IMG/VR virus record: IMGVR_UViG_3300028601_000785
Direction: 5' to 3' (one strand)
Source of the DNA: a virus
Length of the DNA stretch: 31,480 nucleotides
The notes under the pieces are model-generated. The model was given only the letters and a program-made list of their open reading frames with translations. It made no database searches and was not told the DNA's origin. Positions 500 to 27,205 of this stretch are shown piece by piece (the stretch's first letter is position 1; every line of letters begins with the position of its first letter). Both the position numbers and the translations under genes were made by a program.

Positions 500-1747
500 A
501 TGACAAAAACAATAACCGTCAGCTCCTCAGTTGACGATTCAAAAAAACTGCAAAAACTCATAGACAACACGGGAAACACTCCAACCGAATACATTTTTTC
601 AAAGGATAACGACATTGAGATCATCTCACCGATTCGTTTTTATGGCAATCTCATAGTGAATGGGGGCGGGGCCGTTTTCCATCTCACAGACAAAGCCCCT
701 GAGTCTCTTTTTCCCTCCATGACGCCCATCCTCGGAGCAAAGTCCAACGGTGGATCTGGATATGAATTCTCAGGACTCGTTTTTGATGGGAATTCAGATC
801 ACCAAACGGTCCCGCTTGGGAAGGGATTTCATAACCTCATTGGCCTCAGTGGAGCCTCTGATATCAAGATACATGACATCCACCTGCACGACAGCGCCGG
901 AGACATGGCCCGTTTGGCAAATGTAAAGAAGGTACGGTACAATAAAAATAAAGTAATCCGGTGCGGTCACGATGGCCTCTATGTTGATGGGGGATACGAT
1001 GTTGAAGCAGATGATAATTACACTGAAATTCGGACAAACAGTGCAGTAAGATTAAGGCATGTGAAAGGTGGTAAGGTCCGGCGAAACGTAGTCAAAAATA
1101 AAGTAGGTGGGGCTGCATCGTGCCCAGGATTCCAGTTTGAGACATCATTGGAAAATAGGTATTCCTCTGATATTCTGGTAGAAGATAACGAGGTATCGGA
1201 TACGTGGGGACCTGGGGCATGGGTGATTTGTAGGGCAAATCCAAACAAAGGAGCTGCAACCGGGATTACATTCAGAGGCAACACGTTCACAAATTGCGGG
1301 AACATGGACAGCTCATATCATCATATTCCCGGCGTGGGTGGACTTGTTTTCGACTGCTGGGATAAGATCGTAGTCGAAAACAACACTTTCAAAGACTGCA
1401 AAGGGTATGGGGTCCTGTTTGGGGATTATGTGAACGCGGGAGACGTGGGAGCCAACCTTTCAGCCACAATCAGAAATAATAAGTTCATTGGCACTAAGAA
1501 AAGCAATACGGTGGGCACTGCGTCAGGTACTGCTATTGCTAATCTGAAATCAGAAAGATATACGTCTGTAGTTGCTCGGGAGAATTCCTATTCTGGGAAT
1601 GTCAGGGACCTCTACAACGTCACTGAAACGCCAGCCGCTCCCACCGAGAATCCTGCTTTTTTGAAAGTGACTTGCCTTGAATCTCAGATTAAGGCAATAA
1701 AAAACATAATTGCAAATAGAACAATTCTAAGGAAGTTGGAAAAATGA
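500..1747 (+). CDS. Right-handed parallel beta-helix protein, disaggregatase-related (putative methanochondroitin depolymerase)
   Basis: Repeated beta-helix coils. Motifs LGKGFHN, CGHDGLY, RTNSAVR, PGFQFE and TWGPGAW resemble Methanosarcina disaggregatase-associated domains as I recall them (Pfam PF08480-like). No signal peptide. Confidence 0.75.
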   Translation: MTKTITVSSSVDDSKKLQKLIDNTGNTPTEYIFSKDNDIEIISPIRFYGNLIVNGGGAVFHLTDKAPESLFPSMTPILGAKSNGGSGYEFSGLVFDGNSDHQTVPLGKGFHNLIGLSGASDIKIHDIHLHDSAGDMARLANVKKVRYNKNKVIRCGHDGLYVDGGYDVEADDNYTEIRTNSAVRLRHVKGGKVRRNVVKNKVGGAASCPGFQFETSLENRYSSDILVEDNEVSDTWGPGAWVICRANPNKGAATGITFRGNTFTNCGNMDSSYHHIPGVGGLVFDCWDKIVVENNTFKDCKGYGVLFGDYVNAGDVGANLSATIRNNKFIGTKKSNTVGTASGTAIANLKSERYTSVVARENSYSGNVRDLYNVTETPAAPTENPAFLKVTCLESQIKAIKNIIANRTILRKLEK

Positions 1748-2307
1748 CCACATACACGGACAGAGCTTCCCCCATATATACTACATTATACACTGACTGT
1801 AAAGATACAGGCTGCCTGCAACGAAAATTCACAATTCATGGTCAACCCGGCAAACAGATACGAATTGATTCAGTAGGCTGTTCTCTGGCAACCACCCGCG
1901 CGGGAGCCTCTGCTATTGCCTGGGTCATGGCTGTAGTTGATGGGGTGGAAACTACATTGGGATCGTGGGAAGAGACATCAAAGGATTATAAACAGAAAAT
2001 AAATAAACCCGCATTTTTGGCAGATTCCGGGAAAGATGTTATAGTACGGTTTCATCTAAAAACGTCTACCGTGGGAGCAAAAGCGAAAATCAAGCTCTGC
2101 TCTTATACGTATTCCTTTGTAGATTCCGAACCCTCTGTTCCTCCGGTGGTCGATGTTCCCCCGGTTGTCGAGACTCCCCCTGAGGATTGGCCTGCCTCTC
2201 TCCTGATCATGTGCAGCTCTCAGGCTGATGCAGAGGCCCTTATTCCGGAAGTCAAAAAAGTCATCGGAGAAAATGAAATCAGTATATGGACCAAGGGTGG
2301 GAAATAG
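1744..2307 (+). CDS. Hypothetical protein: beta-rich N-domain, Pro/Val linker, short C-terminal module; ends in TAG in frame with the next gene
   Basis: ATGA overlap with ORF 500; linker PSVPPVVDVPPVVETPP; stop is TAG at 2305-2307. Confidence 0.75.
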   Translation: MTTYTDRASPIYTTLYTDCKDTGCLQRKFTIHGQPGKQIRIDSVGCSLATTRAGASAIAWVMAVVDGVETTLGSWEETSKDYKQKINKPAFLADSGKDVIVRFHLKTSTVGAKAKIKLCSYTYSFVDSEPSVPPVVDVPPVVETPPEDWPASLLIMCSSQADAEALIPEVKKVIGENEISIWTKGGK

Positions 2308-2310
2308 ACC

Positions 2311-2347
2311 TGTCCTGAGAATGTTTTGCTAGTCAAACATTCTGACA
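2311..2347 (+). other. Stem-loop starting 4 nt after the amber codon
   Basis: TGTC[CTG]AGAATGTTT[T]G-CTAGT-CAAACATTCTGACA: 14 bp with two bulges and a 5-nt loop. It sequesters the TTG at 2326. Confidence 0.6.
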
Positions 2348-3156
2348 AAAACCATATCCAAATCAATGCCGCCCTGAAACTCGCCTCCTCCACTCCTGGG
2401 ACAATTGTAAGGCTCTCAGAACCTCGCATTTATGAAATTTCTGATAGCCTACTGTTCTATGCCGAATCTATCTTAGAGGGCGTTGATGGGGCTGTGATTA
2501 AGCTCGCTGGCGGCCTGCCTGTATGGGGTGGAAGTGATAGCAGTGTCTCAAAAAAGAAAGCTATGTTCATGATAAAGGGCAGTTCTGCAAGCAATATTAC
2601 AATCAGAAATTTAATTGTCGATGGCAGCCAGAGCGATTATTATCCTACAGTCAAGCTCGGTGCTTCCTGTTATAACATGGCAACCCTTGTAAATTGTGAT
2701 GGATTGACTATCCAGAATGTAACATTCAGGAATGGGTGTAATGATGCCATGCTTATCTCGCAATCCAAGAACATAATGATAGATAAAGTAACCGTGAACA
2801 AATGCGGGCATGACGGTGTATATGCCTATCATGTGGGTGGTATCACGGTTAAAGACTCAAATTTTATTAACCGGACTAATTCGTCCGTTCGTTTCGATTC
2901 CGTAACAGACGGGGCTATGCTGGACTGCAACTGTTCAACTGCCGGAGGGGGGTTCTGCGGGCTGGAATTGCAGGGTGATCTCAAGAATATTATTGCTAGA
3001 GGAAACCACATGAAAGGGCTGCCTTATCCTGGGATTGTGTCTCTTGATGCTAAAATGACTAATGTTGTGATTGAGGGGAATATAATTGAAAAGTGTAAGT
3101 CTCCGGGGATTTCTGCGGCGGGGGCTGTGATTCGAAATAATACGATTACATATTGA
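2326..3156 (+). CDS. Second disaggregatase-related beta-helix protein (possibly the C-terminal part of an amber-readthrough fusion 1744-3156)
   Basis: Motifs HIQINAAL, CGHDGVY and RTNSSVRF; paralog of ORF 500; only a TTG start with no clear RBS. Confidence 0.75.
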   Translation: MLVKHSDKNHIQINAALKLASSTPGTIVRLSEPRIYEISDSLLFYAESILEGVDGAVIKLAGGLPVWGGSDSSVSKKKAMFMIKGSSASNITIRNLIVDGSQSDYYPTVKLGASCYNMATLVNCDGLTIQNVTFRNGCNDAMLISQSKNIMIDKVTVNKCGHDGVYAYHVGGITVKDSNFINRTNSSVRFDSVTDGAMLDCNCSTAGGGFCGLELQGDLKNIIARGNHMKGLPYPGIVSLDAKMTNVVIEGNIIEKCKSPGISAAGAVIRNNTITY

Positions 3157-9224: not shown

Positions 9225-9449
9225 ATGAAAATAGAAGTCGCAGCAAAGAACGCAGAACAAGCAATTGATTTTGCAAGAACTGAACTCGGCATAAAGGGCC
9301 AAATCCACTTAAGCAGAGTCGGAGAAGGAAAGGAATGGCACGGCGACCTGTTGCCGGTAAAGGCTGACAGGGGAGAGCCTAGACATGTGTATAGTATTCG
9401 GGTAGAACCTCACGATGGGCTCGTAGATAATGGATTATATGTGCTGTGA
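9225..9449 (+). CDS. Small hypothetical protein
   Basis: RBS GGAGA upstream; 3 nt after the previous stop. Confidence 0.6.
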   Translation: MKIEVAAKNAEQAIDFARTELGIKGQIHLSRVGEGKEWHGDLLPVKADRGEPRHVYSIRVEPHDGLVDNGLYVL

Positions 9450-9478
9450 GGGAGGACAAAAACATATTTTTTCAACGT

Positions 9479-9530
9479 GCTACTGAGAATGGGGACTCAC
9501 ATTCCCTCCGGTGAAAGTCCGCCAGTGGCA
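9479..9530 (+). ncRNA. Miniature tRNA-shaped three-way junction (52 nt)
   Basis: 7-bp closing stem GCTACTG/CAGTGGC plus an unpaired A; hairpin GAATG/CATTC with a GG-containing loop; hairpin CGG-TGAAAGT-CCG with a T-loop-like loop. Confidence 0.35.
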
Positions 9531-9544
9531 AATTCCTAATAAAC

Positions 9545-9568
9545 CCCCCTGATGTCAGACCCAGGGGG
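9545..9568 (+). other. GC-rich hairpin CCCCCTG-N10-CAGGGGG
   Basis: Perfect 7-bp stem between the two tRNA-like elements. Confidence 0.6.
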
Positions 9569-9580
9569 CAACTCCCAATT

Positions 9581-9698
9581 GGCGCGATCAAGACGGTGAC
9601 ACAGCATTTTTCACCCCAACTCGACCTACCACCTCAAAATCCCCCTACAAAAAACGGTTCTTCCTCTGCTGTGAAGGGTTCAAACCCCTTTCGTGCCG
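9581..9698 (+). ncRNA. tRNA-like RNA with tmRNA-TLD topology and a 60-nt C/A-rich loop
   Basis: Acceptor stem GGCGCGA(9581-87)/TCGTGCC(9691-97) plus G; U8; stemless 12-nt D loop containing GG; 7-bp helix CACAGCA(9600-06)/TGCTGTG(9667-73); T arm AAGGG-TTCAAAC-CCCTT(9674-90). Confidence 0.7.
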
Positions 9699-9714
9699 TC
9701 CCCCGTGTGGGGGA
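9699..9714 (+). other. Hairpin TCCCCC-GTGT-GGGGGA directly 3' of the tRNA-like RNA
   Basis: Perfect 6-bp stem. Confidence 0.6.
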
Positions 9715-9730
9715 ATCTGTCATGAAATAC

Positions 9731-10025
9731 AAAACGGAATACTAAAAAACGGATTAAAAAACGCGCAGAAAATAAAATATGTTCAAAATAGCAATCCGGT
9801 ATAATTGAAAAACGGAATTTGAGTACGAACGAAAAACGGATTCCCAGACATAAAAAACGGATGTATTCTTAATTTTCAAAATCGCTCCGGAGAGGTCCGG
9901 GGCACACCTTACTCCTATGGTGTAGTGGTCAACCATTCGGGCCTTTGGAGCCCGAGACTCAGGTTCGAATCCTGATAGGAGTTTTTGCCCATGCCGGAAA
10001 TAAACAATGGGCTTGTAAAAACGGA
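9731..10025 (+). repeat. Six copies of AAAACGGA (9731, 9746, 9809, 9833, 9854, 10018)
   Basis: Counted by eye; all in the same orientation, irregularly spaced, flanking tRNA-Gln. Confidence 0.8.
9911..9983 (+). tRNA. tRNA-Gln(UUG), archaeal type, no intron, CCA not encoded
   Basis: Acceptor ACTCCTA/TAGGAGT (A1-U72); anticodon arm CGGGC-CTTTGGA-GCCCG with TTG at 9945-47; T arm TCAGG-TTCGAAT-CCTGA; followed by a T run. Confidence 0.93.
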
Positions 10026-10053
10026 TTTTTATATTAATGGGAGTTGAATTTTA

Positions 10054-10431
10054 ATGAATATTGAAAAGAGTTTAACAGAGTTTCCAGATGCGCCTGTGAA
10101 AACCTATGCAATTGAAAAGGATATCATAGCCGTTATTGAAAAGAGATTAATGCAGTTTGACGACCATGTAGAAGACCTTGAAGCCAGAAAAAGAAGAATT
10201 GAAAACGCTCTGAGAATGGATGTAGAAATACGGGCTGAAGATAAGGCTTCTGGGCTCACAAACGAGAAAAAGCGACAGATTGCCTATGAAGAACTTGCAG
10301 ATTGCAATGACGAGCTTCAGGGGCTTATTGTAGAGATCCGAGACACCCGGAGAGAACAGAAGAAGCTCAGGATAGAACTCGGGAATGAGCAGAGAGCTTA
10401 TGCTCTGAAAGTTGCAGGGGTGGGACTATGA
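10054..10431 (+). CDS. Coiled-coil hypothetical protein
   Basis: Long E/K/R-rich heptads; ATGA overlap with the next gene. Confidence 0.75.
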   Translation: MNIEKSLTEFPDAPVKTYAIEKDIIAVIEKRLMQFDDHVEDLEARKRRIENALRMDVEIRAEDKASGLTNEKKRQIAYEELADCNDELQGLIVEIRDTRREQKKLRIELGNEQRAYALKVAGVGL

Positions 10432-16260: not shown

Positions 16261-19062
16261 ATGAATACATCGATGCTGAAATCTTTAGAAAGCACTGTTC
16301 GCACTGTAGAGGAAAACGGAGAATACACAAACCGCAGACGTTTAAAAAAGGTGATGGGGATGTCAGTTTATACCGATCCAGAAGAGCTTAAAAAGTTTCA
16401 TATGCTTTTAATGGCTGACGCTCCACGTGGGTACACGCCTTATTATTTTCCACTTGAAAAAAATGGTAAAGACCCGTGGAAAGGCATGTCGTGGAAGCAG
16501 AACAGAAAAACCTTTAATGAAGCTTATAATCTCATGAAACAGGGCTTCAACATTGGTATAGCTGCAATAGATACTGACCCATTAGTAATCGTAGACATCG
16601 ACGATTTAAATCAAATTAAAAGCCATAAGCCCACACTTGAAAACCAATCACGAAAGCGGATAGGAAGGCACTGTTTTTATTTTACTGAAGACACCCCGGC
16701 AAAGTCCATATTTGAAAACTCATCGAAACAGAATATAGCTACAGAGGACGCGGGGGAGGTTCGGTCAAACTGGCAATATGTAGTCGCTGCTGGCTCGTAT
16801 GTCCCGGTGGCCCCGGAAGAATACGGGCTCATACCAGATGAAGATAAACCGAACGCTGGGAAATATTCTGTTATGGTTGAGCACAGCGTTCAATCAATCA
16901 CATACGACGAATTGCCAGAAGCTTATAGAGTATGTCTTGAAAATAAAAGAGCTACAGACATTGCTAACAGAAATAAGAAAAACAAAAGACCTGTCTCCCA
17001 GGATAAAGACGGTAAAAACAAATCTGCATTATGGTCACTTACGATTAACGACGTTACAGGAAAACACGACGATCCAACACATCGTTTCCCTTCTCCTTTT
17101 CATGGATCAAAAACGTACAAGGACACGAGCGTTTCAAATGGAATGTTGCACTGTTGGAGGCACAACGTAAGCCACACTGCATTGACATACATGGCGGTTG
17201 AGTGTGGGCTGTCTACGTGTTCTGGGGCCGGGTTTGGACACAATGGGGCGGGGTCGTCGGATGTAAATTTTGATGATCCGAAAACGGTTTACACAATATG
17301 GTTACATGCAAAAAACCACGGACATATCCCAAACGATGACCCAATACCAGCAAAAGCAATGGTTTACTATGCCCTCCAATCACACATATGTGAAGAAAGC
17401 GAAGTGGTTGACGGGTGGAAGCTCCCAAAAGAAGTATATAACGAAGTGGTAGAGCACGCCCCATTTGATACCGGCAGGGAACGGATCAAGACGAAGACTG
17501 AGAGTATTGGGCAAGCGATCCGAAGCACCGTGCACGACCCGGTGCAGATCGCCCAGGCTCTACAAGACAGCATCCCGATATATTTCGACATCGCTAAAAA
17601 TTATTGGATGTGGAACGACGAGTTGAAGAAATATGACAGGGTGGACGAAACTGAAATAATGTGTCAAATTTCATCGGGTATGGATCTGACAATTTATAAA
17701 TCACAAATGAAACAGGAGATACTCGAAGCTATCAGAATAACTGGTAGAAAAAGACGCGTGCAGCCTACTAAAAAAGAGTGGATCCAGTTTGAAAACACGG
17801 TTGTTAATATTGAAACCGGGGAGAAATTCGAGGCGACACCAGACTATTTTTTCGTTTCTCCGATACCTCATAAACTCGGGACGGCTGAGGAAACTCCTAT
17901 TATAAACACGATGTTCAAAAGTTGGCACAGTGAAAAAGCCGCGCTGCTTTGTGAAATATGTGCTTACTGCATGTATGACGGTTATCCGATTCAGAGAATT
18001 TTTGCGCTGGTTGGTTCAGGGTCGAACGGTAAAGGACAGTTCATGACTCTTTTAAGGCGGTTGGTTGGAATAGAAAACTGTGTAGGAACAGATCTTGATC
18101 GGCTGGCAAAGTCTCAATTTGAAGCATCTAAACTGTACAAGAAGAAAGCGGCGTTCATCGGAGAAACTAACTATAATACACTTTCAAGAACGAACATGTT
18201 AAAAGCTCTGTCGGGCGGTGATCTCGTATCATGTGAATTCAAGGGAAGAGACAGCTTTGATTTTATCAACACTGCAAAAATACTGATTGCTACAAACGGC
18301 TTGCCAGCTACAACCGATAGATCAGACGGGTTCTATCGTAGATGGTCAATAGTTGAATTTAAAAATAAATTCAAAGACGGGAAGGACATAGTAGACGAAA
18401 TTCCAGAAACTGAATATGAAAACCTGTGCATGAAGTGTATAAGGATTTTAAATAGTATGCTGAAAGCCGGAAAAATGTTAAATGAGGAAACACAGGAGGC
18501 ACGAAAGGACAAGTATGAAAGCTTATCGAACCCGGTGCAGGCGTTCGTAAACGACGAGTGTATAGACTCTGACAATTCGTTTGTGCCAATCTGGTACTTG
18601 TATGAGCAGTATGAGAGCTATCGAGAAAAGAGGGGGCATCGAAAGATATCAAAGAACGAATTTACCTCGATACTTCGAAGCATGGACTATGAAACAAACG
18701 CAAAAAAGTACAATGAGGAATTACAAAGTGAATATACAGACACCGTGGATCCAATAGGTAAAAATTGGAAATCTGTGTTCGGGCTGCGTTTGAAGGGTGG
18801 TAACTATAGTACCCCCGAAATAGACACGTATACGGAAACCGAGGCGGCCACTAAAAAGGAAGTTACCACGGTTACCGACGACGTGAGCCCGTTGCAGCTG
18901 ATTGATTCTTTAATAATCGAGTATGTGAAGAAAGAATACCCTAACCATGTGATAAAAGACGAATATGAATTTGAAAGGAAATTTATTAAACAGTGCCCAT
19001 ATTTCGCGGGTTCGATTGTTAGAGCAAGAATGCATGTATTGAGAACGAGAGGGTGGAAATAA
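16261..19062 (+). CDS. Primase-helicase: N-terminal bifunctional PrimPol plus C-terminal D5/P4-family SF3 helicase (alternative start ATG 16360)
   Basis: PrimPol motifs FPL..NGK.P, NIGI, VIVDIDD, G.H.YF; central FHGS...HCWRH metal-binding segment; D5-N region; Walker A GSGSNGKG (Gly in place of S/T), FIGE, ATNGLP, RRW. Confidence 0.92.
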   Translation: MNTSMLKSLESTVRTVEENGEYTNRRRLKKVMGMSVYTDPEELKKFHMLLMADAPRGYTPYYFPLEKNGKDPWKGMSWKQNRKTFNEAYNLMKQGFNIGIAAIDTDPLVIVDIDDLNQIKSHKPTLENQSRKRIGRHCFYFTEDTPAKSIFENSSKQNIATEDAGEVRSNWQYVVAAGSYVPVAPEEYGLIPDEDKPNAGKYSVMVEHSVQSITYDELPEAYRVCLENKRATDIANRNKKNKRPVSQDKDGKNKSALWSLTINDVTGKHDDPTHRFPSPFHGSKTYKDTSVSNGMLHCWRHNVSHTALTYMAVECGLSTCSGAGFGHNGAGSSDVNFDDPKTVYTIWLHAKNHGHIPNDDPIPAKAMVYYALQSHICEESEVVDGWKLPKEVYNEVVEHAPFDTGRERIKTKTESIGQAIRSTVHDPVQIAQALQDSIPIYFDIAKNYWMWNDELKKYDRVDETEIMCQISSGMDLTIYKSQMKQEILEAIRITGRKRRVQPTKKEWIQFENTVVNIETGEKFEATPDYFFVSPIPHKLGTAEETPIINTMFKSWHSEKAALLCEICAYCMYDGYPIQRIFALVGSGSNGKGQFMTLLRRLVGIENCVGTDLDRLAKSQFEASKLYKKKAAFIGETNYNTLSRTNMLKALSGGDLVSCEFKGRDSFDFINTAKILIATNGLPATTDRSDGFYRRWSIVEFKNKFKDGKDIVDEIPETEYENLCMKCIRILNSMLKAGKMLNEETQEARKDKYESLSNPVQAFVNDECIDSDNSFVPIWYLYEQYESYREKRGHRKISKNEFTSILRSMDYETNAKKYNEELQSEYTDTVDPIGKNWKSVFGLRLKGGNYSTPEIDTYTETEAATKKEVTTVTDDVSPLQLIDSLIIEYVKKEYPNHVIKDEYEFERKFIKQCPYFAGSIVRARMHVLRTRGWK

Positions 19063-23377: not shown

Positions 23378-23800
23378 ATGGATTTCAGTAAAGCACTTGA
23401 AGCCTTGAAAGCAGGCACGAAAGTAAGAAGACACTCTCTTCCGATCAAACATTTTTTTGAAATACTCCCTATACAACAAATGGATCTTTCTTTTAAGCGC
23501 GTTCTCCTAATCACTACAATAACAGATACTGGAAATTTCTCAGAAAATTATACATTAACTGATGATGATATATTTTCTGATGATTGGAAAATAATAGAAG
23601 ACACACCAGAACAACCCCTCACTCCAAAAACACACGGTATCAATTCCTATTCCCTTTGGCTCAACAATAAAATATCCGAATATAACTCAGCAATCCAGAG
23701 TTGCATAGAAGTCAGAGAGTATGACAGGGCTGCGGTATTAGCAAAAGAACGGGATGGATATAATATGTGTTTAAGTGCTTTTGAAAAGATGGTGATATAA
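23378..23800 (+). CDS. DUF2829 / Tad2 (Thoeris anti-defence 2)-like protein with a C-terminal extension
   Basis: MDFSKALEALKAGTKVRR...LTDDDIFSDDWKII matches the family signatures MxFxxALxALKxGxKVxR and DxLxxDWxI. Confidence 0.75.
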   Translation: MDFSKALEALKAGTKVRRHSLPIKHFFEILPIQQMDLSFKRVLLITTITDTGNFSENYTLTDDDIFSDDWKIIEDTPEQPLTPKTHGINSYSLWLNNKISEYNSAIQSCIEVREYDRAAVLAKERDGYNMCLSAFEKMVI

Positions 23801-24329: not shown

Positions 24330-24640
24330 TTTCCCCTTCCATTTTTCCAACAGGCTCTCACACAGCCACGTAGCTCACTTTTCTTACGCTTCCCATACTT
24401 TCCTATTAACTCCCCTCTAAAATCCTCTCTACTGGCTTCTAGTGAATCTATACCTTTTTAATTCGTGTGACTATATTTTATTACTTCAATACAAACATTT
24501 TTATTTTGAAGAGTTATATTATCATCTATGATATATTTTTCAAAGAATGATATTTTTTGATATCTGGAGGAATAAATGATTAAAAAAACAGGCGGCTATT
24601 TTTGTGATGACTGAAAAACGATTTTTAGAAAGGGGCGGCG

Positions 24641-27205
24641 ATGAATAATAGAGTACGTCGTGGGTTTCTTTTTGTGGTTATTTTTTGGATATATTTGTGT
24701 CTCTTAGTAGGCTCTGCGAGTGCCGTCCCACCTTCAGGAGAAATACTACATTTTGATTTCGAAACGGGATCAGGCTCAACGGCATTAGATGATTCCGGAA
24801 ATGGAAACAACGGAACATTAGGCGCAAACGTTGTATGGGTAGACGGGAGAGGCGGAGGACATGCAGTCAGAACAAATAACACGGCTACGTCTATTGTTAC
24901 TGTATTAGATTCAAGTACACTAGATCTATACCAGTCAGATTTTTCTATGTCAGTAGACATTAAACCAAACGCAGTGATGGATGACATCACTGAACATTAT
25001 TATATAATTAAGAAAAGACAGAATTTTAATGACCTGAATGGTTATCAGGTTATCATTTCAAAATACGGAACTCCGGTTAAACCACTTACTATTAATCTCG
25101 GGGATGGTTCTGTTTCAGCATCAAGTTACTATCTCAACCAAAAAGAGTGGGCACAGAATATCTGGACAAATGTATTAATTACGTATGATTATGAAACAAA
25201 AACAGTAAAACAGTATAGAGACGGAACACTAAAAACAACTACCGTATTAAGCACGCTAAACGGAGAGGCAACTGCCGCAACGAATGAGCAAAATCTGATA
25301 TTATTCTCATACTGTAATGCTGATTTCGACAATGTAAATATATTTAATCGAACTGTAACAGACAGCACTGAAATCTCTCAACTAGCATATGGGGGCGATG
25401 CATCATCTCAAACGTATTATGTTTCTAACTCAGGAAGCAATTCGAATTCTGGCGCAATTGATTCTCCTCTACAAACAATTACTTATGCGTGTTCTATTGC
25501 ACTTCCAGGCGACACAATAAAAATTATAGACGGGACATTTTCCGAAAGTGGGATTGTACTCGCTGAAAGTGGATTATCTGGTCATCCAATTACAATAGAA
25601 AAATATAATGGAACTGTACTTTTACAGGGCAGTGGACAGCAATACGGTTTTAATATCCTGAAAAATTATATCACTATTGACGGGCTTGATTTAAACGGAT
25701 ACCAGAACTCAATATACTATTCAGGTGCTGACAACACAGAAACAAATAATGTATCAATTACAAATGTTTCGGCATATGGGATATATTATTCCTCTTGTAC
25801 AGATGCTATAATTGACACAATTGATATTGCGGATTGTACAGGCAGCGCAATAGGATACCTGAATCTGGAAACTGCATATGTTTCAGATATTAACATTGAT
25901 TCAGTAGATTATGGTATGATCGGGACCGGTCTAAAAAACTCCACAATTACAAATTATATTGCTAATGGGTCTATCAAAGGCGTGGATAGTACAGGGTCAT
26001 GGAATACAACATATGATAATTTCCGCATGACAAACATGTCTATAGACGGCATGGATTTCAAGACTAATTGTAATTATACCACTGTTAAAAATGGATATAT
26101 CGATACTATAATAAGTCATGGACTACACTTTTTCAACGGGGCGTATGATACAAAAGTTGAGAATGTCACATTCTGGGACTGCTGGCATAACGAGCTTGAT
26201 TTCCACACTAATTACAATAAACTTGATACTGTTAATGTGTCAAACTGTTATTTCAATTACAGACCAACTCCTACACCACTAACAGGAGATGTAGTAGGGG
26301 TATTCTTCCATAATTATAACGCATCTAATATAATAATAGACAATTGCGATTTTAATTATACATATCGCCCAATACAGATTTATAATACTAGGAATCTCAC
26401 CGTAACGAACAATGAATTCTGGAATATTAAACAGGATGATAGTCTACCTCTCGGTAACTGGTTATTGTTAGGGTCAATAGGAGATGATGATACATATGGG
26501 TATACAGGAGACTCCGACAAAAGAGGAGTATTCAATGCAACTTTTAGGGACAATATAATTTATGGTCCAAATTCATACGGGATAAATGTTTATACATACG
26601 CAAGTGGCACTTATCCGCTAGGTCCTAATCAGACATACATAGAGGATTGTATTTTTTGGAATAATACATTTTTAGGGCAAGCAAATCAGTATTTATATCT
26701 CACATCTTCATCAATTTTAAGTGATTGTCTATTTTTTGACAATGTTGAAGATAATTTAGTTTCTGGACTTGTATATCTCAACAATACACCAAATTCAACA
26801 GAAAACATTTCGATAGGGCTAGACGTTGCAACAGCTTACCCTCTTCAACACTCTTTTGATTTTGTAACGGTTGGCGTACCAATAGCAGCATTTTCAGCCA
26901 ATAACACAACAGGTACAGCCCCTATAGATTTATCATTTACGGACGGCTCTATGTGGGCTCCTACGTCATGGAGTTGGGACTTTGAAAATGACGGGACAAT
27001 AGACAGTACTGAACAGAATCCAATCTGGACATACGATACAGACGGGGAATACACAGTTAATTTGACAGTTTCGAATGAATATGGTAGTGATTCTGAAATA
27101 AAAGTGGATTATATACAATTAACTAATCCGTATGTTCCCCCACTACTAGTTACTGCAAGTGCAGTTGTAATGTATTTCTTCATGAGATCCAGGAGGTGGT
27201 GGTAA
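24641..27205 (+). CDS. Membrane-anchored surface protein: signal peptide, LamG/ConA-like domain, right-handed beta-helix, PKD domain, C-terminal TM
   Basis: N-terminal RRGFLFVVIFWIYLCLLVGSASA; HFDFETGSG..ALDDSG (LamG); YYVS..GS....G....P..TI (DUF1565-like entry to a beta-helix); AAFSAN...G.AP....F.D.S...PTSW.WDF..DG (PKD); LLVTASAVVMYFFMRSRR anchor. Confidence 0.85.
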   Translation: MNNRVRRGFLFVVIFWIYLCLLVGSASAVPPSGEILHFDFETGSGSTALDDSGNGNNGTLGANVVWVDGRGGGHAVRTNNTATSIVTVLDSSTLDLYQSDFSMSVDIKPNAVMDDITEHYYIIKKRQNFNDLNGYQVIISKYGTPVKPLTINLGDGSVSASSYYLNQKEWAQNIWTNVLITYDYETKTVKQYRDGTLKTTTVLSTLNGEATAATNEQNLILFSYCNADFDNVNIFNRTVTDSTEISQLAYGGDASSQTYYVSNSGSNSNSGAIDSPLQTITYACSIALPGDTIKIIDGTFSESGIVLAESGLSGHPITIEKYNGTVLLQGSGQQYGFNILKNYITIDGLDLNGYQNSIYYSGADNTETNNVSITNVSAYGIYYSSCTDAIIDTIDIADCTGSAIGYLNLETAYVSDINIDSVDYGMIGTGLKNSTITNYIANGSIKGVDSTGSWNTTYDNFRMTNMSIDGMDFKTNCNYTTVKNGYIDTIISHGLHFFNGAYDTKVENVTFWDCWHNELDFHTNYNKLDTVNVSNCYFNYRPTPTPLTGDVVGVFFHNYNASNIIIDNCDFNYTYRPIQIYNTRNLTVTNNEFWNIKQDDSLPLGNWLLLGSIGDDDTYGYTGDSDKRGVFNATFRDNIIYGPNSYGINVYTYASGTYPLGPNQTYIEDCIFWNNTFLGQANQYLYLTSSSILSDCLFFDNVEDNLVSGLVYLNNTPNSTENISIGLDVATAYPLQHSFDFVTVGVPIAAFSANNTTGTAPIDLSFTDGSMWAPTSWSWDFENDGTIDSTEQNPIWTYDTDGEYTVNLTVSNEYGSDSEIKVDYIQLTNPYVPPLLVTASAVVMYFFMRSRRWW

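Follow-up and report, generated by a model that had tools for sequence, protein, structure and literature searches.

The question raised by this locus is whether positions 9581-9698 encode an RNA and, if so, of which class, since they were originally predicted to form an unclassified tRNA mimic with tmRNA-like topology, whose 60-nt loop would carry several segments resembling the anti-Shine-Dalgarno sequence. The DNA analysed, here called the window, is 31,480 nt long and is part of a 49.9-kb metagenomic contig from what looks like a Methanosarcinales-type virus. Besides the genes listed below, it encodes a thymidylate synthase and a thymidylate kinase. The closest relatives of its Gp3-like protein are found in metagenomes, in Methanolobus psychrotolerans and in one Methanosarcinaceae MAG. 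The element at 9581-9698 is contained in a 600-nt ORF-free stretch (9450-10053), which has a small ORF on one side and the opening gene of the Gp3/replication operon on the other, with everything on the + strand. The main features of this setting are:

500-3156: beta-helix and disaggregatase-related proteins
9546-9568, + strand: GC hairpin 12 nt 5' of the element, weak (folding z -1.49)
9699-9716, + strand: GC hairpin directly after the discriminator (folding z -3.15)
9911-9983, + strand: true tRNA-Gln(UUG), 58.7 bits, the syntenic neighbour of the element in the window, L133 and L135
10428-11849: Gp3-like protein
16261-19062: primase-helicase
23378-23800: ORF with a Pfam match to a Tad2-like domain (Thoeris anti-defence 2-like; E 3.5e-10)

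L-numbers denote fetched loci or contigs of related uncultivated viruses. A GC hairpin starts 1-3 nt past the discriminator in the window, L135 and L133, and in the latter two it differs in sequence from that of the window.

Several further features were observed in and around the same non-coding stretch. At 9479-9530 there is another element, 52 nt long, which is closed by a stem of 7 bp and encloses a hairpin carrying CCCTCC in its loop (folding z -2.35), and possible relatives of it begin right after the upstream ORF in L133 and L135. The word AAAAACGGW occurs seven times in the window against 1.09 expected, six of these copies being located in non-coding 9650-10025 and all on the + strand; it recurs in the equivalent regions of L011, L133, L135 and L003, and it is likely a promoter (BRE-like) element or the binding site of a regulator. 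The copy at 10017 stands directly 5' of a TATA-like box preceding the gene at 10054, and one 24-nt unit of the repeat stretch, at 9807, is missing from strain variants. A-rich boxes 5' of the element were read as TATA-like by eye only. An inverted repeat, GCCCATG ... CATGGGC, is conserved downstream of the last tRNA, ahead of the operon's first gene. Elsewhere in the window, the only other strongly C-rich, G-poor stretch (24371-24441, 25 C in 71 nt) is non-coding and lies upstream of a gene for an 854-aa beta-helix/PKD protein. The positions of the two repeated motifs are:

9650, 9745, 9808, 9832, 9853 and 10017, + strand: copies of AAAAACGGW
9987-10012 of the window: GCCCATG ... CATGGGC, shortened
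L001:2644-2692, L003:2588-2634 and L009:1686-1730: GCCCATG ... CATGGGC in relatives

When the element itself was dissected, the layout that had been proposed for it, with an acceptor, a D-like loop, a helix, a 60-nt loop and a T arm, was recovered in every part:

9581-9587, + strand: 5' strand of the acceptor stem, pairing with 9691-9697 (7 bp, G-U at pair 4)
9588-9599, + strand: stemless D-like loop of 12 nt, with GG at 9595-9596
9600-9606, + strand: 5' strand of helix 2, a perfect 7 bp with 9667-9673, in the place of the anticodon arm
9607-9666, + strand: 60-nt loop, putative single-stranded payload (A17 C25 G3 T15)
9667-9673, + strand: 3' strand of helix 2, directly followed by the T stem (variable region absent)
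9674-9690, + strand: T arm, 5-bp stem and 7-nt tRNA-type loop TTCAAAC
9691-9698, + strand: 3' strand of the acceptor and discriminator G (9698); CCA is not encoded

The T arm, which had been given as GG-TTCAAAC-CC, is indeed canonical, with a stem fuller than described (5 bp). The four C-rich words of the loop start at 9611, 9629, 9640 and 9661 as reported, and GAGGTGG is present at 27193. It also proved true that the loop holds no stop codon in the three + frames, yet 15% of composition-preserving shuffles are equally free of stops; this property follows from the scarcity of G and is unremarkable. The G-U pairs on the + strand, the T-loop motif and the co-orientation with tRNAs point to an RNA of the + strand. 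The folding energy of the whole element is only weakly distinct (z-score -1.36), and helix 2, which is thermodynamically marginal in closing a 60-nt loop, is present in the centroid and absent from the MFE structure. The case for something more than chance rests on comparison with relatives. As an observation on the sequence, the tRNA-shaped structure is confirmed.

The element was expected to escape full detection by tRNA and RNA family searches, and ARAGORN and Rfam called only the neighbouring tRNA-Gln at 9911-9983. For the element, Rfam gave no call at gathering scores or up to E=10, and no RF00005 match at E<=10, with 9400-10100 as the region searched. ARAGORN reported nothing there with default, intron, mitochondrial or -m (tmRNA) settings, and with the threshold lowered to 60% it returned the same two ends joined by a meaningless fold. 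The Rfam mascRNA model scored 14 bits on the region, which is chance level, and no Rfam family matched the homologs described below. The element has the 7-bp acceptor and the T arm with T-loop motif that define one half of a tRNA, and it lacks the D arm, the 5-bp anticodon stem and the 7-nt loop that define the other; neither a D stem nor a variable region is present. The designation as a tRNA-shaped RNA outside all curated families is supported.

An intron could in principle explain such a structure. Nevertheless, a bulge-helix-bulge cannot form, because the loop has 3 G and helix 2 is without bulges, and none of 5195 single excisions from the window element, or of 6759 from its counterpart in L135, gave a tRNA recognised by ARAGORN, so that an intron-containing tRNA was rejected as a candidate. 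From the L133 element, 3 of 6667 single excisions did so. A decayed tRNA with a normal intron had been named beforehand as an outcome that would speak against the prediction, and the element is not of that kind, since no single excision restores a tRNA in the window.

For the comparison with relatives, about 0.63 Mb of loci were scanned with a descriptor that asked for a 7/7 acceptor together with a T arm, and for an inner helix enclosing a C-rich loop poor in G. It gave nine matches (six distinct), compared to about one in block shuffles. Eight of the nine are on the gene strand, just 5' of a Gp3-like gene in close relatives; the ninth, in L088, is dubious. As MAFFT did not align the elements structurally, we built a covariance model from nothing but the element of the window, using the proposed structure, and searched 183 kb of relatives. 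This model matched L135:1588-1722 (29.7 bits, E 1.8e-5) and L133:1422-1555 (22.2 bits, E 0.002), while none of the true tRNAs in the 183 kb was matched at E<=10. L135 and L133 are different viruses, and their Gp3-like proteins are 75-85% identical to that of the window over the C-terminal part. In all three viruses, the element is located upstream of tRNA-Gln(UUG) and the Gp3-like gene on the same strand, and it combines a 7-bp acceptor and a T arm with a D-like GG loop, a helix 2 of 7-11 bp that runs straight into the T stem, and a loop of about 60-77 nt that is poor in G. In the model alignment, the D-like loops of the window and L135 are one base and one insertion apart.

Compensatory changes in the three helices, whose absence had been set beforehand as grounds for abandoning the structure, were found: double-sided changes affect 13 of 19 pairs among the window, L135 and L133, distributed as 5/7 in the acceptor, 5/7 in helix 2 and 3/5 in the T stem, in an alignment of three sequences only that is fitted to the model. 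In this three-way alignment 98% of the cells pair, versus 30-44% in slid registers, and RNAalifold returned the same structure from it. The T-loop motif is kept in all members. Neither the acceptor sequence nor the discriminator is conserved, the latter being G, U, U and U across members; L135 and L133 carry G1-C72, C2-G71 and U73, like viral tRNA-Thr, and have no acceptor G-U. At the level of sequence, these comparisons show that the architecture is conserved and maintained through compensatory changes, and they indicate that the element is a product neither of chance nor of decay.

With a model built from the three sequences, a likely fourth member was found by sequence at L010:451-562 (27.2 bits, E 5.5e-6 in a small search); true viral tRNAs among the loci reach about 22 bits with this model, and host tRNA-Thr about 28 bits. 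A score of 18.7 bits was obtained for L010:51-130, and L003:2076-2185 is of the same design according to the descriptor, yet it was not matched by the three-sequence model. The known members thus amount to three clear and one or two probable ones, all on metagenome contigs. The proposed type A family, defined to include a G-poor loop of at least 30 nt and a location 5' of the Gp3-like operon, comprises the elements of the window, L135 and L133/L134, and L010:451-562.

Wider searches did not extend this set. Neither blastn with 9300-10100 nor tblastn with the Gp3-like protein found anything in the phage collection. In IMG/VR, no match was obtained with the exact 25-mer of T arm and acceptor or with the protein query; the 16 matches to a D-loop/T-loop pattern were chance ones, of which the model confirmed none, and an alignment query returned one close archaeal contig, which does not carry the element. 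Loci L132, L136, L147-L150, L248 and L249 have no upstream non-coding region or no element. In 151 Methanosarcinaceae and 151 Methanosarcinales genomes, the three-sequence model found only ordinary 72-nt tRNA-Thr or nothing, a result which, given strict filters and a search with no positive-control genome, means only that the element was not detected in those 302 genomes.

Other small structures were noted in the same regions of the relatives. A second conserved tRNA-like family of about 62 nt, absent from the window, is represented by L135:1868-1930 and L011:234-296; its members lack an anticodon arm and are made up of a covarying acceptor, an A-rich segment common to both, a small hairpin and a T arm. 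The viral tRNAs of the group are followed within 1-2 nt on the 3' side by a conserved hairpin, TTCNGG-ANCA-CCNGAA, a position where type A elements carry a hairpin too. The same conserved hairpin follows the degenerate tRNA at L010:243-309, which receives no ARAGORN or Rfam call. The TTCNGG-ANCA-CCNGAA hairpins are located at:

L003:2407-2425
L010:309-327
L011:56-74
L133:1772-1790
L009:1478-1496

Variation between strains was examined next to that between viruses. The seven public runs listed as containing the stretch are all DNA runs, from four studies, and no RNA run is listed. Contigs from four of the seven, belonging to two studies and about 93-96% alike, were compared. Across the four runs, substitutions were itemised at 9490-9578 and 9788-9863, together with a 24-nt deletion, whereas between them, at 9579-9787, the only itemised difference is a 1-nt deletion in the loop, at 9620, in one run. 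About four differences per variant contig were not itemised, and for this reason the claim is one of strong conservation and not of invariance. Two of the four runs have, at 9921-10001, 136 different letters instead of the tRNA-Gln, with the sequence conserved on either side, which suggests that this site is a tRNA cassette that can be swapped between strains.

These data bear on the possibility that the locus is a functionless remnant, either a tRNA pseudogene in decay or a tRNA split by an intron or an insertion. Its location in a tRNA cluster would fit, as would the resemblance of its acceptor and T arm to the tRNA-Thr and tRNA-Trp of related viruses, and in L010 a degenerate tRNA (243-309) does occupy the place where L003 has tRNA-Trp. 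However, the excisions described above restored a tRNA in almost no case, no Rfam tRNA was found at E<=10, the stems are perfect with compensatory changes in three viruses, and no substitution was itemised in the element while its flanks vary. We consider a pseudogene or an interrupted tRNA very unlikely and, judging from these comparisons, largely refuted.

A role at the level of the DNA, whether as an attachment site with part of a tRNA, as an array of operators or promoters, or as an origin structure, is highly improbable. The loop does hold one copy of AAAAACGG, a word repeated six times in 9650-10025 and recurring in relatives, and the region lies just upstream of the replication module, but the T loop, the G-U pairs on one strand and the covariation of the helices are signatures of RNA. 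The element is probably not an attachment site, given that there is no integrase among the window ORFs scanned, that both acceptor strands are present and not only a 3' fragment, and that a matching site was found in 0 of the 302 host genomes searched.

The tmRNA-like topology originally proposed stands with regard to shape and fails in all other respects. Like the tRNA-like domain of tmRNA, the element combines a 7-bp acceptor, a stemless D-like GG loop and a T arm with a long-range helix that encloses a large insert. In contrast to tmRNA, it has no G3-U70 (the alanine identity pair), its only acceptor G-U in the window being pair 4; it lacks a resume codon, a stop-terminated tag ORF and pseudoknots; it is not called as tmRNA by ARAGORN or Rfam; and it measures 118 nt, tmRNA being longer than 300 nt. 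Identification as a tmRNA was rejected on these grounds. A broader version, in which a tmRNA-like or aminoacylated RNA acts on the ribosome, could draw on this topology and on the tRNA-Thr-like G1-C72, C2-G71 and U73 of L135 and L133, but a loop with 3 G offers no pseudoknot potential and acceptor identity is not conserved among members; moreover, archaea, to our knowledge, lack SmpB. We regard it as extremely improbable.

The function assigned to the loop had been that of a multivalent anti-Shine-Dalgarno sequence, complementary to ribosome-binding sites in the window, and neither claim held against shuffled loops. With the 16S 3' end taken from a Methanolobus genome, the best identity of the window loop to the 16S tail is 6 nt, a value that 32% of shuffled loops attain; in the loops of L135 and L133 the longest such identity is only 4 nt. 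Duplexes of the loop with the 46 start regions of the window gave -10.8 kcal/mol versus -11.5 for shuffled loops, and random coding 31-mers gave -8.8 kcal/mol in the same test. The specific anti-Shine-Dalgarno sequence that characterises an anti-RBS sRNA is not found in the loop. A motif resembling the complement of helix 45 of 16S was also tried and rejected, being within shuffles. Any affinity of the loop for ribosome-binding sites would then be a matter of its composition and not of specific words, which are not conserved.

The premise that Methanosarcina sRNAs can mask ribosome-binding sites is itself well founded, as sRNA154 and sRNA41 of M. mazei do so (PMC5867862). These are archaeal sRNAs of the presumed host group with anti-RBS sequences, and the loop of the element is likewise C-rich and predicted to be unpaired. 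They have no tRNA scaffold, however, and the anti-RBS words of the element are within what composition yields and not shared by its homologs.

What the loops of the window, L135 and L133 do have in common is G-poverty, several C runs and collinear short islands, with 17 shared 6-mers versus 7.0 expected (P=0.005). Perfect complements of at least 9 nt within each virus's own locus included none common between viruses. A 12-bp hairpin at L088:85-133, on a Candidatus Methanoperedens contig, has a C-rich loop holding CCACCTCAA, which also occurs in the window's loop.

When the non-coding regions of eight related viruses were considered together, 6-mers of the 16S tail occurred 21 times on the transcribed strand, versus 7.4 +/- 3.3 expected, and only 6 times on the opposite one. 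Stretches of 7-9 nt identical to the tail are present in L133, L001, L135 and L003, mostly in the loops of small hairpins beside tRNAs or tRNA-like units. The anti-Shine-Dalgarno theme may thus apply to the whole cluster, without explaining this loop. The following small hairpins or single strands, just 5' of tRNAs or tRNA-like units, carry 6-9 nt of the 16S 3' end:

L133:1392-1413
L001:1800-1820
L003:2196-2222
L009:1375-1398
L135:1508-1516

The most conserved features of the element are the acceptor/T-arm half and the elbow, the parts that processing enzymes read. RNase P, tRNase Z and the CCA-adding enzyme recognise the acceptor/T-arm half with its elbow. Readers of the elbow are listed in PMC4810234. 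We propose that the virus encodes, at 9581-9698, a non-decoding RNA of tRNA-like shape, which most likely arose by exaptation of a viral tRNA and which is released with a C-rich payload, and we give this proposal about an even chance of being correct. Its family is small and conserved, and is found in uncultivated Methanosarcinales-type viruses, within the non-coding stretch, rich in tRNAs and hairpins, ahead of the early/replication operon. In L135, L133 and L010 the acceptor resembles that of viral tRNA-Thr and tRNA-Trp, and the best tRNA matches of the model are tRNA-Thr; because of this likeness in sequence, an origin from a duplicated viral tRNA is likely.

According to this proposal, the + strand would be transcribed together with the neighbouring tRNA, and host RNase P, tRNase Z and CCA-adding enzyme would read the acceptor/T-arm half with its elbow in the way shown for archaeal t-elements. 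Such processing would release and stabilise an RNA of about 118 nt, in which helix 2 would present the long C-rich loop as a single-stranded payload binding a partner in trans. The leading candidate for the partner, named tentatively and on composition alone, is purine-rich RNA such as ribosome-binding sites.

Archaeal t-elements are tRNA-like and are cut in vivo by RNase P and tRNase Z (PMC4326828, which cites Hölzle et al. 2008 and 2012), and those of plant mitochondria are cut likewise (PMC1920247). Known t-elements, such as the element upstream of 5S rRNA in Haloferax volcanii and those of plant mitochondria, have the same non-decoding tRNA shape, with the acceptor/T-arm half as the determinant for RNase P and tRNase Z. 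By this analogy, processing of the viral element by both enzymes is plausible. A non-decoding acceptor/T-arm structure, by which t-elements are recognised structurally, is present in the element and is known here from the DNA. The element differs from them as follows: t-elements are valued for the cut and have no conserved extra domain, whereas this element is viral, has a covarying helix and a G-poor loop of 60-77 nt, and it lies in a cluster of tRNAs and non-coding RNAs instead of at the end of an mRNA or rRNA.

The same precedents would also support another interpretation, namely a pure cis signal for processing or stability (a t-element, or 'tRNA punctuation'), whose cuts separate the RNAs of the cluster or set mRNA ends, the insert being functionless. 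That no targets of the loop were found among the 16S tail, start regions and own-locus complements agrees with it, and so do bare acceptor-plus-T-arm minihelices in the same regions of relatives, in which the top half is used alone:

L003:2235-2266 (= L004, L007): bare minihelix, 31-32 nt
L135:1465-1495: bare minihelix, 31-32 nt

These minihelices, however, imply that a cut signal needs no insert. Helix 2 nevertheless shows double changes in 5/7 pairs, the D-like loop is near-identical in the window and L135, and the loops retain their G-poverty and collinear islands with no itemised substitution among strains, which would be surprising in a neutral insert of 70-90 nt. As helix 2 and the loop are kept though a mere cut signal would not need them, we favour the released scaffolded RNA over the punctuation signal, to which we assign a real but rather low probability.

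Another possibility is that the element serves as a decoy or sponge for proteins that read the top half or elbow of tRNAs, be they defence nucleases, modification enzymes, synthetases or elongation factor. The parts forming the elbow (acceptor, T loop and D-like GG) are the best conserved ones, and the virus has other candidates for counter-defence, including the Tad2-like protein of 23378-23800. Yet an element with no anticodon loop does not mimic the substrate of anticodon nucleases, the variable discriminator (G, U, U, U) and acceptor identity argue against any one synthetase, and a decoy would leave the conserved long loop without a role. In our judgement a decoy is unlikely.

The released, scaffolded RNA that we prefer has partial parallels in other systems. 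In mascRNA/MALAT1 and the tRNA-miRNA units of gammaherpesvirus 68, a tRNA-like module is the handle by which RNase P and RNase Z bring about release or stability. In those cases the cargo is a neighbour of the tRNA-like unit; in the viral element it takes the place of the anticodon arm within the unit. They are also eukaryotic polymerase III or nuclear systems, as opposed to an archaeal virus. Mitochondrial tRNAs without a D arm share with the element a D-replacement loop and the retention of acceptor and T arm, but they decode and keep a 5-bp anticodon stem with a 7-nt loop, in place of which the element has a loop of 60 nt. By analogy, the element would work most like a t-element or a tRNA scaffold; it resembles the tmRNA domain in shape and, by the searches and comparisons above, is a member of neither the tRNAs nor the tmRNAs.

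A search of the accessible literature found no paper describing tRNA-like RNAs of archaeal viruses, and the class to which this RNA belongs is apparently undescribed. We know of very few non-coding RNAs of archaeal viruses, and of none with a described mechanism in viruses of methanogens. The family shows that a class of viral tRNA derivatives escapes both tRNA finders and Rfam. If the part of the tRNA that processing enzymes read has been kept while the decoding part was exchanged for a C-rich loop, the element would be a natural counterpart of the engineered 'tRNA scaffold'. More speculatively, these elements could be the first class of trans-acting regulatory RNAs of archaeal viruses, using the top half of a tRNA as a handle, for processing and stability, of a long C-rich strand that would titrate ribosome-binding sites rich in purines, or else a different G-rich RNA or protein of the host, and that, together with the hairpin loops carrying 16S-tail sequence, would reprogramme host translation early in infection. 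At 118 nt, the element is a clonable candidate for the use of host tRNA maturation by a Methanosarcina virus and, possibly, for interference with host translation.
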